From Enterococcus phage EFC-1: a stretch of DNA of 40,286 bases. A model generated the notes under the pieces. The model did not search any database, was not told the origin of the DNA, and saw only the letters and a list, made by a program, of their open reading frames with translations. Made by a program: the position numbers and the translations under genes. The DNA lies in the sequence record KJ608188.1. One strand, written 5' to 3'. Below are positions 3,438 through 27,312 of this stretch, piece after piece (positions within the stretch are counted from its first letter, which is position 1; every line of letters starts with the position of its first letter).

Positions 3438-3621
3438 AAATGAGGCTTTCTTAGTGCGTGAAACCGTCCGAGAAAAGGTTGAATCATTGCAAGACACAGT
3501 ACGCCATGAAAGTGCTAAACACCCAATGAAACAAGATATCCATACGTTAAAACATTTTCAAAAAGAATTGGATTGTTATGAAATAATCTATCAAAAAATG
3601 CTAAACGAAGTGGGATGTTAA
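3427..3621 (+). CDS. hypothetical protein (64 aa)
   Basis: Track ORF 3364..3621, trimmed to the internal ATG at 3427 to avoid overlapping the previous gene. Confidence 0.35.
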   Translation: MLNENEAFLVRETVREKVESLQDTVRHESAKHPMKQDIHTLKHFQKELDCYEIIYQKMLNEVGC

Positions 3622-22450: not shown

Positions 22451-23050
22451 ATGAAAACAAAAAAACTATTATTGCCAATGCATTTACAATACTTTGCTGA
22501 TAATCCAGATACTGGCGCTGGAGATACGGACCAACCGGCCGGAGGTCAAGAGCAAACACCGCCAGGAGATAGCGGCAAAGATAAAGGTAATGAAAAAACG
22601 TTTTCTCGTGGTGAAGTAGCAAAAATGATCGCTGCTGAAGTATCAAAAACAAAAGAAGCTTGGGAAAAAGAGCAACAAGAAAAACAAGCAGAAGCAGAAA
22701 AACTGGCAAAAATGAATGCTCAGGAAAAAGCTGAACATGAAAAGAAACAGCTAGAAGCAAAAATTGCGGAATTGGAACGTAGTCAAGCGTTAGTTTCCAT
22801 GTCAAAGGAAGCTTCTAAAATGCTTTCAGAGGCTAGTTTGCCGCATGACGATGATTTGCTAGGATTGATTGTTTCAGATGATGCGGAAGCTACAAAAAAA
22901 GCTGTCGCTATTGTTACGAACTATGTATCAATGATTAAGAAAGAAAATGCTCGCCAAAAAACACCAGGTGAGGGCGGACAATTTTCAACTGATAAAAAAG
23001 AAACCGAATCAGTTGCAGCTCTTGCAGCAAGTAAACGAATTGTAAAATAG
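22451..23050 (+). CDS. head scaffolding protein
   Basis: E/K/A-rich helical 199-aa protein immediately upstream of the major capsid gene. N-terminus carries an L27-like Prp cleavage motif HLQYF|A. Confidence 0.65.
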   Translation: MKTKKLLLPMHLQYFADNPDTGAGDTDQPAGGQEQTPPGDSGKDKGNEKTFSRGEVAKMIAAEVSKTKEAWEKEQQEKQAEAEKLAKMNAQEKAEHEKKQLEAKIAELERSQALVSMSKEASKMLSEASLPHDDDLLGLIVSDDAEATKKAVAIVTNYVSMIKKENARQKTPGEGGQFSTDKKETESVAALAASKRIVK

Positions 23051-23062
23051 GAGGAAATATAA

Positions 23063-23995
23063 ATGAAGAAAAAACAATTAATGAAAATGGATATTCAAAT
23101 GTTTGCTCAAACATGGAATCCAGACAACGTCACAGTATTAGAGAAAAAGGATGGAACAATTCCAGATAAGTACAACACTTTAATTTTAAAAGATGTGATG
23201 GAAAACTCTAAATTAATGCAATTAGCTAAATATGAAGAAATGGACAGCAAAGAAAAGAAATTCGAATACTTTGCAGAAGGTCCCGGAGCATACTGGGTTG
23301 GTGAAGGTGATAAGATTAAAACGTCTAAACCTAAATGGTTAAACGTAACAATGACTGCGAAAAAAATCGGTGTTATTATCCCAGTTTCTCGGGAATATTT
23401 AACTTATAAGATGTCTGATTTCTTTACTCAAATGCAACCAAAAATCGCAGAAGCATTTTATAAGAAAATTGATGCGGCTACTATCCTTGATAAAGAAAAT
23501 CCATTCTCTCAATCTATTGAAAAATCTGTCATTGCAGCTAGTAATGTAATTGAGGGCGACTTGACATATGACAACATTTTAGCATTAGAGGATTTGCTTG
23601 GAGAAGGTGAATACGATCCGAATGCTTTCATTTCTAATCGTAAGAATCGTACAGTGTTACGTGAAGCAAGTAAAAAAATTGGTGACACAACTCAATTTAT
23701 TTATGATCGTGTCAGCAATACTATTGATGGACTACCTGTAGCAGATCTAAAATCTATGGATAAGGGAAACCTTTATACTGGTGATTTTGATTACTTGCGC
23801 TATGGTATCCCATTTAACATTAATTTCAAAATTTCAGAAGAAGCTCAATTATCTACTCTAACGAATGAAGACGGTACGCCTGTCAACTTGTACGAACAAG
23901 AATTGGTTGCTTTACGAGCTACAATGGATATTGGTTTCATGGTCATCAAAGATGAAGCATTTGCTAAGATTCAACCAAAAGCTGCGGGGGAGTAA
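23063..23995 (+). CDS. major capsid protein
   Basis: 310 aa, follows the scaffold, RBS AGGAGGAAA. N-terminus carries an L27-like Prp cleavage motif DIQMF|A. Confidence 0.7.
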   Translation: MKKKQLMKMDIQMFAQTWNPDNVTVLEKKDGTIPDKYNTLILKDVMENSKLMQLAKYEEMDSKEKKFEYFAEGPGAYWVGEGDKIKTSKPKWLNVTMTAKKIGVIIPVSREYLTYKMSDFFTQMQPKIAEAFYKKIDAATILDKENPFSQSIEKSVIAASNVIEGDLTYDNILALEDLLGEGEYDPNAFISNRKNRTVLREASKKIGDTTQFIYDRVSNTIDGLPVADLKSMDKGNLYTGDFDYLRYGIPFNINFKISEEAQLSTLTNEDGTPVNLYEQELVALRATMDIGFMVIKDEAFAKIQPKAAGE

Positions 23996-24057
23996 CTAGC
24001 CCTGTTGTCGGAAAAGTAACACCGACAACAAATGGGGCGACAATCGAACTAACTTAG
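23968..24057 (+). other. conserved -1-frame peptide (…SPVVGKVTPTTNGATIELT) overlapping and following the capsid gene 3' end; candidate programmed frameshift extension
   Basis: The -1 frame is open from 23968 and ends with TAG at 24055-24057. It is 68% nt-identical to the corresponding element after the major tail gene, with six purely synonymous codon differences in this frame. Confidence 0.4.
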
Positions 24058-24068
24058 GTGGTGTTTTG

Positions 24069-24401
24069 ATGTCAGAGATAGCAAATGATGTAAAAAAATT
24101 ATTAAATGGCAGTCTTGATGAAAAATTAGAAATCATTGAAAGACGTACAAAAGATCGGCTTCAAAATATATTGAATGTCACTGAGTTACCAAAAAGTTTT
24201 GATTCAGTTGTATATGAAGTCACTTTAAAACGATTTAATCGTATTGGCCAAGAAGGAATGCAATCTTATTCTCAAGAAGGTTTATCTATGGCATTTCCAG
24301 ACTCTGATTTTTCTGAATATCAAGATGAGATTGAAGAGTATAAGAATAAGGAAATAGAAGAACTTTATAAGCCTAAACGTGGGAGGTTTACATTTTCATG
24401 A
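24069..24401 (+). CDS. head-tail connector (gp6-like adaptor)
   Basis: About 110 aa, position after the capsid gene, RBS AGGTGGTG. Confidence 0.5.
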   Translation: MSEIANDVKKLLNGSLDEKLEIIERRTKDRLQNILNVTELPKSFDSVVYEVTLKRFNRIGQEGMQSYSQEGLSMAFPDSDFSEYQDEIEEYKNKEIEELYKPKRGRFTFS

Positions 24402-24733
24402 GATATTTAGATGAAATTGCCTTTGTAAAAAAATCTTCAGAATCGCATTATGATCCAAATTCAGGTGAATGGATTGAAGAAGAACCGTTTAGAAAAACTG
24501 CTGATGTCAATGTAACTGATATTGGTACAGATCGTTCTATTACTATTTTCGGAAGCATTAAAGAAGGGGCTAAGGTCATTAGGACACAACCCCTTTTTGT
24601 TATTCCAGAATTTGATTACATTGAGTTTGAAGGTAAAACTTGGGAAGTTATTACAAGTAGAGTTCCTGCATTAAGAAATAGTTTGATTGTTCAGGAAGTG
24701 ATTATTGATGGCAAGAAATCAAGTGAGAATTAA
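24398..24733 (+). CDS. head closure / head-tail joining protein
   Basis: 111 aa, coupled (ATGA overlap), position. Confidence 0.45.
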   Translation: MRYLDEIAFVKKSSESHYDPNSGEWIEEEPFRKTADVNVTDIGTDRSITIFGSIKEGAKVIRTQPLFVIPEFDYIEFEGKTWEVITSRVPALRNSLIVQEVIIDGKKSSEN

Positions 24734-25088
24734 TGGACTAGCTGGAATTTCTAAAAAACTAAAGAGAAATGCTCAACTTGATGATGTGAAAAAAGTTGTT
24801 AGAAATAACACAGCAGAATTAACCGCTAATATGCAAGCCGAAGCCGGAAAAGTGTTAACTGGACACTGGGAAGGTAAAAAGTTTGTTAAACCAACTGGGG
24901 CAACAAAAAGAAGTATCGTTATGAGGCTTTCGAACAATGGTTTTTCTGGACATACAGGACCAGGAACAGAATACGCACCATACTTAATACATGGAACAAG
25001 ATTCATGGTGAAACGTGATTTCTTTTTACCACCGCTGAAACAACAAAAAGTGAAATTTAGAACGGATTTGGAAAGGTTGATGAAATGA
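24705..25088 (+). CDS. HK97 gp10-like tail-to-head joining protein
   Basis: 127 aa; N-terminus [26 protein letters not shown]; position. Confidence 0.45.
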
Positions 25089-25474
25089 TTAAAACAAGAG
25101 ATCAATCAATCTTCGATGAAGTGTATAAGAAGTGTCAATCACTGGGCTATGAAACCTACGATTATAAACCTATGAATGATGTAGGTTATCCATTTGTCGA
25201 ATTAGAAGATACTCAGACACTGCACCAAGCCAACAAAACTGATATTAAAGGTTCGGTTACATTGAATCTATCTGTATGGGGATTGGCAAAAAAACGTAAA
25301 CAAATATCGGATATGGCTTCAGCAATTTTTGCTGAGGCTCTATCTATTTCTGAAACGGAAGGTTATTATTGGTCGCTAAATATCCAATCAAGCGGTATTC
25401 GGTTAGTAGATGACATTTCGACTAACACAACATTGAAGCGGGCAATGATATCTTTAGAATTCAAAATACTATAG
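25085..25474 (+). CDS. tail completion / tail terminator-like protein
   Basis: 129 aa, coupled, position before the major tail gene. Confidence 0.4.
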
Positions 25475-25489
25475 AGAGAAGGAATATAA

Positions 25490-26020
25490 ATGGCTAATGA
25501 AGCAAAAGTAGCGGCTAAAGGTATTGATATTATTTTACTTTTCCGTTTGTTAAAAAAATCAAAAGAGGAACCAGCATGGAAATTAGCTTTCCAGACAGAA
25601 CATGAAAATACAAAAACCAAAGATAGTGACTCTGTGGCCACTAAAGATGGTCCGATTCGCATCCCAGGATCATTGGAAATTGATTTTTCGGCAACATCTA
25701 TTCTATCAGTCGGTGATCCGTATGTTGACCAGCTAGAAGAAGCTTTAGACAATGACGATATTATTGAAATCTGGGAAATCAACAAAGCAGAAAAAGGCAC
25801 AGGAGATAATGCTGACAAGTACAAGGCAACCTATTACCAAGGATATGTAACATCATTTGGTAAATCGCCTAATGCTGAAGACACCGTAGAAGTTTCATTA
25901 GAATTTGGTATCAATGGTAAAGGCGCAAAAGGATTTGCAACATTAACTGCTGATCAAGAAGAAGTAGTTCAATATGTCTTCAAAGATACGACTATTGAAA
26001 CAGCTGATCCGGGAAAGTAG
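25490..26020 (+). CDS. major tail (tube) protein
   Basis: 176 aa, strong RBS GAGAAGGAA, position. A GGGAAAG slippery heptamer overlaps its last codons. Confidence 0.6.
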   Translation: MANEAKVAAKGIDIILLFRLLKKSKEEPAWKLAFQTEHENTKTKDSDSVATKDGPIRIPGSLEIDFSATSILSVGDPYVDQLEEALDNDDIIEIWEINKAEKGTGDNADKYKATYYQGYVTSFGKSPNAEDTVEVSLEFGINGKGAKGFATLTADQEEVVQYVFKDTTIETADPGK

Positions 26021-26082
26021 ATAGCCCTTCTGTGGGAAGTGTAACTCCTACAGTCGATGGGGCTTCTATTGAATTAAGCTAA
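26008..26082 (+). other. conserved -1-frame peptide (…SPSVGSVTPTVDGASIELS) following the tail tube gene, reached via GGGAAAG (26011-26017); in frame with the downstream Ig-like gene across a single TAA
   Basis: G GGA AAG in the correct register (0-frame codons gga/aag). The -1 frame opens at 26008. TAA at 26080-26082. The ATG at 26098 of the Big_2 gene is in the same frame. Confidence 0.45.
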
Positions 26083-26097
26083 GAAAGGAAAATAAAT

Positions 26098-26556
26098 ATG
26101 GTGGATACTTTTAAAATTTATAAAGGCCAAACCGAAGTTGTTTCTGGCACATCACCTTTAACTATAACAGGAATGGAACCTAACACCTCTGCGCCAGTTG
26201 GTGAGTACCAAGTAACTCGTGTTGTTAATGGGAAAGAATCAGAGCGAGTAGATATTCCAGCTTTTAAAACATTGTCTATTGCTGTAACTGGCTTAGAGTT
26301 TTCTCCTAAAACATCAACAGCAGATGCGGGTACTGCAGGTAGCCGACAAATCACAGCAACTGTCTTGCCTGAAAATGCAACCAACAAAAAAGTAACCTAT
26401 AAGATTACGCCTGAAACAGAAGGTCTTGCTGTCTCTGAAACAGGAAATATTACTTGGACAGAAGCGGTACCGTCTGGTGTTTATACCACAACAGGAACAA
26501 CAGAGGATGGTAAAAAAACAGCTCAACACACCTTAACATTGAATAATCAAGCTTAA
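26098..26556 (+). CDS. Ig-like (Big_2-type) domain protein, probable tail tube decoration
   Basis: SIAVTGLEFSPKTSTADAGTAGSRQITATVLPENATNKKVTYKI is a Big_2-like bacterial Ig fold signature. Confidence 0.55.
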   Translation: MVDTFKIYKGQTEVVSGTSPLTITGMEPNTSAPVGEYQVTRVVNGKESERVDIPAFKTLSIAVTGLEFSPKTSTADAGTAGSRQITATVLPENATNKKVTYKITPETEGLAVSETGNITWTEAVPSGVYTTTGTTEDGKKTAQHTLTLNNQA

Positions 26557-26570
26557 AATATAAATTTAGA

Positions 26571-26597
26571 GGGCAGCTTAGCGGCTGTCCTTTTCTT
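26571..26597 (+). terminator. intra-operon stem-loop/terminator (7-bp stem GGGCAGC/GCTGTCC, T-rich tail)
   Basis: GGGCAGC ttagcg GCTGTCC TTTTCTT between the Ig-like gene and the tail chaperone gene. Confidence 0.4.
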
Positions 26598-26611
26598 ATG
26601 GAGGAAAAGAC

Positions 26612-26962
26612 ATGCAAATCGAAATTAAAGGAAAAAAATATAACTGTATTTTTGGAGTCAAGTTTATTCGTGAATTGGATAAGCAGCATGGGGTAGTTCG
26701 TAATGATGTGAATCTTGGAATGGGGTTAACAACATTATTACCGCAGCTAGTAAGTGGAAATATCGTTGTTCTATCTGATGTACTTTACACAGCTACTATT
26801 ACAGAAAAAAGTAGACCTTCTAAGGATGAAGTAGATGAGTTTGTTGAAACTGTTGATGATATTGAGGCGTTATTTGATGAAACGTTGAAAAACTTAGAAG
26901 AAAGCAATGCGGGAAAGTTAACGGTCAGAAATTTCAAGAAAGCTCTGATGGAGAACAAGTAA
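26612..26962 (+). CDS. tail assembly chaperone (gpG-like)
   Basis: 116 aa directly upstream of the tape measure. Contains G GGA AAG at 26911-26917 in the 0-frame register. Confidence 0.6.
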   Translation: MQIEIKGKKYNCIFGVKFIRELDKQHGVVRNDVNLGMGLTTLLPQLVSGNIVVLSDVLYTATITEKSRPSKDEVDEFVETVDDIEALFDETLKNLEESNAGKLTVRNFKKALMENK

Positions 26963-27312
26963 GAGAGGAACTAAGCTCAGCTGAAGCTTATGAAAATATT
27001 CTTATTAATTGTTTTCGTTACCTAGAAATTACTGATTTATCAGAAATCGAACGAATGACTTTGTATGAATATGAAGTTAGGCTATTGGCGTTTCAGTTAA
27101 AAAGACTTGACCATGAAAGAGACCTCTATCTCCAATCTTGGCTAAATAACCAAATTAAGGCGACTAAAGGTAAAAAATCTGAACCTTATTATAAGGAATT
27201 CAATAAGTTTTTCAATTATGAAGAACGAGAGAAGCTTATTTTGGGTAAATCATTAATTGATGAAAAAGTTGATATAGGAGCAATTGATTTATTAAGAAAA
27301 GCAAATAAGTAG
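26612..27312 (+). CDS. tail assembly chaperone frameshift fusion (gpGT-like) via -1 slip at GGGAAAG 26911-26917
   Basis: The -1 frame is open from 26881 through the track ORF 27055..27312 to the stop at 27310-27312. Classic G/GT arrangement. The internal ATG at 27055 is probably not an independent start. Confidence 0.5.

Follow-up and report, generated by a model that had tools for sequence, protein, structure and literature searches.

The DNA analysed here is the 40,286-nucleotide sequence of Enterococcus phage EFC-1 (record KJ608188.1), referred to at its full length as the window. The subject is a pair of short out-of-frame coding segments which follow the genes of the major capsid and the major tail protein, and the open reading frame (ORF) for an immunoglobulin-like (Ig-like) protein directly behind the second of them. 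These genes belong to the head-tail module of a siphophage of Enterococcus faecalis, which has 97.5% DNA identity to vB_EfaS_IME197 over 5 kb and 93% identity to phiEf11 in the tail module. The gene order is scaffold (DUF4355), major capsid, connector and neck genes, tail tube, Big_2 protein, tail assembly chaperone and tape measure; all features given below lie on the plus strand. The major capsid gene (23063..23995, 310 amino acids) encodes an HK97-type protein (Pfam Phage_capsid PF05065, E = 1.6e-31) and ends in the zero frame with GCG GGG GAG TAA. The major tail (tail tube) gene (25490..26020, 176 amino acids, Pfam Phage_tail_2 PF06199) ends in its zero frame with CCG GGA AAG TAG. ORF 26098..26556 (152 amino acids, with a Big_2 match) has its own ribosome-binding site (AAAGGAAA) and an ATG start, and is the proposed ‘receptor’ in the interpretation developed below.

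The segments 23998-24057, after the capsid gene, and 26023-26082, after the tail-tube gene, translate to SPVVGKVTPTTNGATIELT and SPSVGSVTPTVDGASIELS, respectively, each followed by a stop codon. The original prediction, made from the letters of the window, described them as two 60-nucleotide segments of 68% identity in the -1 frame; rereading the sequence gave 41 of 60 identical nucleotides (68.3%) and near-identical peptides of 19 residues. Capsid and tail-tube codons start at positions 2 mod 3, and both segments, read in 1 mod 3, lie in the -1 frame. This frame opens at 23968 (after TAA at 23965-67) for the capsid gene and at 26008 (after TGA at 26005-07) for the tail gene, again as predicted. 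The six codon pairs listed as differing only at synonymous positions were all correct, and the two stop codons differ as well (TAG/TAA). Across the 40-kb window, the segments are each other’s best ungapped match (z ~7.5), the runner-up reaching 30-31/60, and a six-frame scan of the window for the peptide motif found no site beyond these two. Counted from the shift sites, the extensions comprise 23989..24057 for the capsid, (G)VTSPVVGKVTPTTNGATIELT, and 26017..26082 for the tail, VDSPSVGSVTPTVDGASIELS, both ending at a stop. They are called tags in the following; both carry a coding signature and are probable homologs of the first two strands (A and B) of an FN3 domain.

Since the tail -1 frame opens only at 26008, the shift is confined to the ten nucleotides 26011..26020, which consist of the canonical heptamer G GGA AAG (26011-26017, register X XXY YYZ) and the stop codon TAG. 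The chaperone gene has this heptamer as well, in the same register, at 26911-26917, a coincidence which had been pointed out before. The string GGGAAAG is not over-represented (4 found, 4.4 expected), so that its significance derives from position, register and conservation, not from frequency. The capsid shift site is assigned to G GGG GAG followed by TAA (23986..23995), based on the sequence and on homologous sites in other genera, where NCG GGG GAG TAA/TAG terminates many capsid and tail genes. In every -1 case among the relatives the purine run directly abuts the zero-frame stop; the commonest form is CG GGG GAG TAA/TAG, and G GGA AAG TAG, G GAA AAG TAG, G GGG AAG TAG and A AAA AAA TAG also occur. 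In several relatives the -1 frame opens merely two to three codons before the run. This late opening leaves the run as the place of the shift, which by homology is 23986-23992 in the capsid gene, and supports the G-run that had been proposed as the slip site. All runs would let both tRNAs re-pair after a -1 move, with one G.U pair tolerated. The predicted junction peptides are KAAGEVTSPVVGK (tandem slip on G GGG GAG) or KAAGGVTSPVVGK (P-site slip on GGG) for the capsid and DPGKVDSPSVGSVTPTVDGASIELS for the tail. The tail product predicted for a tandem slip, ..DPGK-VDSPSV.., corresponds residue for residue to the in-frame ..DPEKVDSPSV.. of phiEf11. Transcriptional slippage was considered instead of ribosomal frameshifting; it is conceivable for the A7 run of the phiEf11-type capsid gene and unlikely for the G5 and GGGAAAG runs of the window.

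Whether the tags are translated was examined in two sets of 80 loci each, one with relatives of the tail-tube protein and one with those of the Big_2 protein. From these, 58 distinct tags were gathered by their peptide motif, a procedure which biases the stop count and leaves the wobble pattern unaffected. None contained a stop in the tag frame and 53-55 of the 58 had stops in the other two frames. The entropies of the three codon positions were 0.77, 0.64 and 1.42, and single-base codon differences were synonymous in 71% of cases in the tag frame vs 18% and 9% in the others. The extension comprises 21-23 amino acids and its stop is conserved in 58/58 variants; a complete Ig-superfamily domain would have about 80-100 amino acids. 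The -1 ORF is, hence, open, conserved and under protein-coding constraint in the relatives. Its peptide is conserved in all relatives having the Ig-like ORF, as expected from the earlier claim that it is translated. Indels or stops in related phages had been named as evidence to the contrary; the sole indels found were single-base changes at the shift site which place the tail tag in frame.

Such in-frame tail tags are present in phiEf11 (L001), in four metagenomic loci (L028-L031) and, separately, in L021. In phiEf11 (ORF15, L001 4078-4671) and the four metagenomic relatives, the tail gene has 197 codons and ends with ..DPEKVDSPSVESVTPTFDGASTELS and a stop, due to a one-base difference located exactly at the heptamer. 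We regard these in-frame copies as the strongest single item arguing for translation of the tag. In tails of the phiEf11 type, every tube subunit would carry the tag. In L021, a metagenomic contig, a different one-base insertion (GAT CAC GGG AAA GTA, ~3500-3595) brings the tag in frame.

The tag is also not tied to one family of structural proteins: it follows capsids of PF05065, of the phiEf11 type and of PF25209, and tail tubes of PF06199 and PF04630. The capsid of the phiEf11 type is unrelated to that of the window, yet its gene ends with TCA AAA AAA TAG, followed by IEAPKVESV(T/I)PTTDGASIVLS and a stop in the -1 frame. In Listeria prophages, the tag is found after a PF05065 capsid and a PF04630 tail tube, and in phages of Oceanobacillus and other Bacillaceae after a PF25209 capsid and their tail tube. 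In virions of phiEf11, the major head protein occurs in two sizes, and Stevens et al. proposed a -1 shift at AAAAAAA with an associated stem-loop, adding 21 amino acids (PMC5221750). A search for in-frame fusions of capsid and tag returned solely P0205, an 86-amino-acid fragment from one ENA genome which probably represents a damaged prophage or an assembly error and was not counted as evidence. Two close capsid relatives (P0216 and P0218) carry at the position of the tag an in-frame C-terminal extension of about 90 residues matching Pfam PF18316, by which the capsid C-terminus appears to be a recurrent point of display.

Each tag contains a predicted RNA hairpin. The capsid hairpin (23999..24038) starts 6 nucleotides past the shift site, has a minimum free energy of -19.5 kcal/mol (z = -4.5; 0 of 200 shuffled sequences equally stable) and is a probable frameshift stimulator. 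The tail hairpin (26023..26064) starts 5 nucleotides past the heptamer and has a minimum free energy of -19.3 kcal/mol (z = -3.1). These spacings lie within the 5-9 nucleotides downstream of a slippery site which are expected of a stimulatory structure. Both hairpins share an outer stem, (G)CCC(Y)/GGGG(C), and their inner stems differ in sequence with the register kept (CUGUGGGA/UCCUACAG in the tail, GUUGUCGG/CCGACAAC in the capsid tag). Comparative support is moderate: in 43 distinct sequences, a fixed two-helix structure had 69.8% of cells paired vs 33-48% with slid partners, and the covariation was modest, scoring above all 500 shuffles and below one slid control. RNAalifold, applied to 54 tags including the slip site, returned an empty consensus; the register of pairing is variable, and CCCC is an alternative partner of the G-run. 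At 23985-24003 and in many relatives, the G-run of the slip site is complementary to the CCCC of the 5’ arm of the hairpin, which gives two mutually exclusive hairpins, one pairing slip site and CCCC, the other CCCC and the downstream GGGG.

The presence of a stable hairpin in both copies could indicate that the segments act as RNA only, stabilizing as untranslated structures the transcripts of the two structural genes with the highest expression or regulating the next gene, the open -1 frame being a by-product of pairing. In line with this, pairing fixes some codon choices, namely GGG for the glycine and the third base of the codon preceding the proline. Several observations argue against this explanation, which we judge highly improbable. 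The synonymous bias is limited to a single frame and holds also 3’ of the hairpin, slippery run and stop codon are always in register, and tag and ORF occur as contiguous protein homologs (see below). Furthermore, the in-frame tail copy of phiEf11 keeps the peptide while the hairpin is weakened (-14.1 kcal/mol, z = -1.6), as expected if peptide and RNA are selected separately. No intrinsic terminators were found at the tags, which are without a T-tract. An Rfam search of the tags returned no relevant family.

The product of ORF 26098-26556 appears to consist of an FN3 domain without strands A and B (residues 1-58, encoded by 26098-26271) and a Big_2 domain (residues 62-144). All homologs of this ORF start one to four residues ahead of a conserved FKIYKG motif, and of the matches to the first 60 residues found with HMMER among 1.84 billion representatives, ~62/85 begin at protein residues 1-5. 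The N-terminal domain of the homolog P0031 matches positions 32-83 of the 84 positions of Pfam fn3 above the gathering score; the receptor family, therefore, starts at FN3 strand C. In the less diverged relatives L090, L095 and L122, the peptide upstream of the ORF is a textbook FN3 start, e.g. NPPVNLTGDPTETTVKLTWE followed by a stop. When tag and ORF of these three loci were joined conceptually, fn3 positions 2-83 of 84 were matched with 31-34 bits; the ORF part alone covered positions 39/46-83 with 25-29 bits. Thus, the tag accounts for profile positions ~2-38.

Natural unsplit proteins (P0171, P0192 and P0154) have the same layout in one chain, i.e., a tag-like segment, a loop of 7-9 residues and an FKIYKG-type segment; the sequence of P0171 reads VDTLSATTDGAVVSF-KNVNVGD-TFRIYTD..SPVTITGL. 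In the AlphaFold2 model of P0171, the tag-like part forms strands A (residues 2-8) and B (11-16) with a predicted local distance difference test (pLDDT) score of 85-96, and the top PDB matches of this model in Foldseek are FN3 modules. SPVTITG is a strand in this model, whereas the same conserved SPLxITG segment received no strand assignment in the model of the split protein P0018, which fits a strand E lacking its partner B. By this homology, the tag corresponds to the A-B β-hairpin of an FN3 domain and ORF 26098-26556 begins at strand C. The sequences of the window itself gave weak matches to an FN3-like β-sandwich (positions 34-80 of 86). Because they are too diverged, the FN3 assignment for EFC-1 was made by homology to the clearer relatives. 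Taking coding constraint and split-domain homology together, the tags are very probably translated by frameshifting and very probably form, with the N-terminus of the ORF product, two parts of one FN3 domain.

The same arrangement might be read as one interrupted extension. In the window, ORF 26098 continues the frame of the tail tag, with one TAA and five sense codons between them, and unsplit frameshift extensions are well known. After the -1 shift in the tail gene, ribosomes could then pass the TAA of the tag by read-through or re-initiation and produce a fusion of tail tube, FN3 and Big_2, comparable to SPP1 gp17.1* or A118 Tsh-L. Such a fusion is very improbable in our view, as the frame of the tag differs from that of the ORF in L122 and in the Listeria locus L083, a strong ribosome-binding site of its own precedes the ORF, about 62 of 85 representatives of the family share a conserved Met start, and capsid tags precede a head-tail connector gene instead of an FN3 remainder. 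Moreover, TAA is an efficient stop codon.

Tags and receptor genes were compared for co-occurrence using class-specific motifs; over about 165 loci of Enterococcus, Listeria, Staphylococcus and Bacillaceae phages, no exception was seen. Receptors of class I were found with tags of class I at 101 loci (89 with two tags), class II with class II at 7 loci and class III with class III at 4 loci; 52 loci had neither and mixed classes did not occur (0 loci). Three loci have tags without a receptor call, and in two of these (L029 and L096) the DNA ends at the receptor gene. The reverse-strand control gave 1 match in 1.49 Mb. Among the relatives of the tail tube, both tags were present in every locus with the ORF and no tag in 41/41 loci without it. 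The receptor gene is always located directly 3’ of one of the tags, namely after the capsid tag in phages of Bacillaceae (e.g. L085, 5001-5498) and after the tail tag in phages of Enterococcus, Listeria and Staphylococcus. The second tag stands alone as an orphan, an FN3 remainder being absent downstream of it; examples are the capsid tag of the window and the tail tags of the Bacillaceae phages. In P0018 (L086, 284-1060, a complete gene), a truncated FN3 domain is followed by two Ig-like domains, and the protein itself ends in an in-frame tag, ..DPPVVESITSTTDGASINLE, before the stop. Head-to-tail binding among proteins of this type is conceivable.

Tags equivalent to those of the window are made in classes II and III by a predicted +1 shift at ACN CCC TAA/TAG, on both the capsid and the tail-tube gene (L089, L090, L095, L115, L117, L122, L134, L136 and L140). 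In sequence, these tags resemble the canonical beginning of an FN3 domain, and the conserved Trp forms the end of some of them (..TVKLTWE and stop). Triavirus phages of Staphylococcus aureus, e.g. phiIPLA35 (L168, 2230-2310 and 4390-4470), have TTA CCC AGC TAA on the head gene gp41 and the tail gene gp46, and gp47 is the receptor. Relatives of the ORF are present in 248 phage records, of which 232 are staphylococcal. The receptor ORF is widely annotated as ‘major tail protein’, probably wrongly. That the tag is a fragment of a domain, that each tag holds a probable stimulating hairpin and that the family is widespread with +1 variants had not been part of the original prediction.

In our interpretation, the tags recruit the Ig-like protein by fold complementation. 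At the purine runs abutting the two stop codons, G GGG GAG-TAA in the capsid and G GGA AAG-TAG in the tail-tube gene, a fraction of the ribosomes would slip by -1, probably aided by the hairpin 5-6 nucleotides downstream. Each shifted ribosome would add ~21-23 residues representing the A-B hairpin of an FN3 domain. Strands C to G would be supplied by the N-terminal 58 residues of the separately translated product of ORF 26098-26556, which continues into Big_2. This product would dock on the tagged head and tail subunits, the tag completing its FN3 fold, whereby heads and tails alike would be coated with a single decoration or adhesin protein, at a density set by the frameshift efficiency. Sequence and comparison establish the homology of the tags, their coding constraint, the anatomy of the shift sites, the potential for hairpins, the split-domain homology and the co-occurrence; that EFC-1 itself frameshifts and that tag and protein bind is what we infer. 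The Ig-like protein encoded next door had earlier been guessed as a ligand of the tags; of the ideas on the ligand it is the best supported, because tag and ORF appear to be the halves of one FN3 domain and co-occur. The matching of classes, the orphan tags and the tag borne by a receptor point to a tag working in trans with a strand-deficient domain and are otherwise difficult to explain.

A number of points weigh against this interpretation. Regarding frameshifting, the capsid run G GGG GAG is a non-canonical heptamer whose re-pairing at -1 requires one G.U pair, and the extension peptides were undetected by mass spectrometry in phiEf11 (PMC5221750). Conservation of the tags is in part RNA pairing, since GGG is used almost without exception for Gly and the Pro codon is fixed as CCC, with codon choice likewise fixed at the base before the Pro codon. 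Regarding complementation, the joined tag and ORF of the window do not reach Pfam fn3, being too diverged. In the AlphaFold2 model of P0018, the C-terminal in-frame tag is not docked on the protein’s own N-terminal domain and appears as coil (pLDDT 63-71); for the truncated domain by itself, the model is confident. Finally, the loci are phylogenetically non-independent, many being near-identical E. faecalis prophages.

The modelling of P0018 and the origin of much of the co-occurrence from related prophages would also suit tags which are made by frameshifting and do not bind the Ig-like protein. They might be remnants of an FN3 extension that was formerly complete, short strands added to neighbouring capsid or tube subunits or weak adhesins, and the link to the ORF would reflect co-inheritance of a module. 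On the other hand, orphan tags without a downstream FN3 remainder are still under coding constraint across genera, the class of the tag always matches that of the receptor, and the tag at the C-terminus of the P0018 receptor itself is difficult to account for without an interaction of tag and receptor. We consider this non-binding explanation unlikely. Recruitment by fold complementation is favoured with some reserve as the probable function of the tags; for its physical core, i.e., that tag and ORF product re-associate on the virion, the chances appear slightly above even.

In a wider sense, the system could be a natural ‘tag and catcher’, for which tailed phages of Firmicutes have divided an FN3 domain: an A-B hairpin of 20 residues serves as the tag, and the strand-deficient FN3-Big_2 protein as the catcher. 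A share of the capsid and tail-tube subunits limited by frameshifting would display the tag, through -1 or +1 recoding at the stop codon, and the soluble Ig-like adhesin would be recruited non-covalently to two structurally unrelated lattices. We put the chances of this wider reading at about even. Occupancy would then be tunable, following the frameshift efficiency in the window, being full where the tag is in frame (the tail of phiEf11) and leading to chains where the catcher is itself tagged (P0018). A covalent (isopeptide) link of tag and receptor was considered and is unsupported: an adduct would have ~37 kDa, and the tail protein of phiEf11 migrates at 28 kDa.

The Listeria phages A118, A500 and PSA are established examples of paired 3’-terminal frameshifting in capsid and tail genes (PMC5009743). 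This precedent had been cited for EFC-1, and direct inspection of A118 and PSA verified it, with extensions whose content differs from the tag. As proposed here, minor C-terminally extended forms of the two most abundant virion proteins are made (A118/A500: cps -1, tsh +1; PSA: +1 in both), the shift takes place at the last codons and the stop codon beside the shift site is used. The capsid of A118 is homologous to that of EFC-1 and its shift occurs at the place predicted for EFC-1 (..QPKAGN followed by the stop, G GGA AAC). However, the extension of A118 Cps is a HeH/SAP domain, that of A118 Tsh a complete Big_2 domain and that of PSA Tsh an acidic tail. These are mutually unrelated whole domains or tails, whereas both extensions of EFC-1 appear to be the same 20-residue fragment of one domain. 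In SPP1, gp17.1* arises by a +1 shift at CCC_UAA, which adds an FN3 domain of 87 residues to about one quarter of the tail-tube subunits (PMC6316719). SPP1 resembles the arrangement proposed for EFC-1 in placing an FN3 module on a subset of tail-tube subunits via a shift at a ‘shifty stop’, and its signal is that of the +1 class of the tag family (CCC_UAA/UAG). In contrast to SPP1, which fuses a whole FN3 domain, EFC-1 would fuse strands A and B, with strands C-G and Big_2 as a separate protein, and the capsid would be tagged as well.

A direct relative is ORF10 of phiEf11, for which the -1 shift was proposed at AAAAAAA-TAG (+21 amino acids). The phiEf11 capsid belongs to a family different from that of EFC-1, but its tag is the same module. 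Its authors treated the capsid extension as isolated and speculative and drew no connection to ORF15 or ORF16 (PMC5221750). ORF15 ends in the same peptide in frame and, by the homology above, this peptide and ORF16 form an FN3 domain. The ORF15 protein was reported to run at 28-30 kDa vs a predicted 21.5 kDa (PMC5221750).

Ig-like domains added by frameshifting are common, according to a summary which covers Fraser et al. 2006, gp5B/gp10B of Lactobacillus phage A2 and 10B of T3; in the same summary, the direction of the shift is immaterial and in-frame versions exist (PMC5009743). Extensions of this type are located on capsid and tail proteins, as in EFC-1, but they are complete domains in cis, whereas EFC-1 would present a fragment in cis and the remainder in trans. 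Hence, paired frameshift extensions were known already (A118, PSA, A2, SPP1), while for the split-domain design no description was found. Full-text literature searches, of incomplete coverage so that a prior description is possible, returned none of a split FN3 domain or of attachment by fold complementation in phages. An Ig-like fold which lacks one or more strands and is completed by a peptide from another polypeptide is the principle of donor-strand complementation in chaperone-usher pili and of the engineered SpyTag/SpyCatcher pair. Neither is related in sequence to the EFC-1 pair, and the involvement of a chaperone or of a covalent bond is unsupported in EFC-1.

Downstream of the receptor gene lies the tail assembly chaperone G/GT pair (26612..27312, Pfam Phage_TAC_12 PF12363). 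The chaperone gene occupies 26612-26962 and its -1 partner runs to 27312, the -1 frame being open from 26884 to 27312. With the in-register heptamer mentioned above (G GGA AAG, 26911-26917), a -1 frame continuing past the gene and a location upstream of the tape measure gene, the pair has the features expected of a G/GT chaperone. Three -1 frameshift signals, those of capsid, tail tube and chaperone, are found within 3 kb (23986-26917), two of them sharing G GGA AAG. Upstream, the N-termini of the scaffold (22451-22510) and the capsid protein (23063-23122) are alike, MKTKKLLLPMHLQYFAD.. and MKKKQLMKMDIQMFAQ.., and are encoded by a 39-nucleotide repeat (D5) of 74% identity. Their ..LQ(Y/M)FA resembles the N-terminal cleavage motif of ribosomal protein L27, at which the host protease Prp also cuts the capsid and scaffold proteins of the staphylococcal phage 80alpha. 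If this likeness is right, scaffold and capsid protein may both be trimmed by a host protease.

If true, the proposed recruitment would constitute an undescribed route for the attachment of decoration proteins, in which a domain split between genes is re-formed on the particle and the copy number is set by the efficiency of recoding. It would explain short and puzzling ‘extensions’ such as that of phiEf11, and likewise the 150-residue ORFs annotated as ‘major tail protein’ or ‘Ig-like’ which follow capsid and tail genes in hundreds of phages of Enterococcus, Listeria, Staphylococcus and the Bacillus group, whose annotation would be corrected. Tag and receptor would provide a phage-native pair of peptide tag and binder for phage display and engineering. 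The family also represents a large natural set of signals composed of slippery run, stop codon and hairpin, including the non-canonical G GGG GAG and an interchangeable +1 CCC-stop, which is useful for studies of recoding in Gram-positive bacteria.

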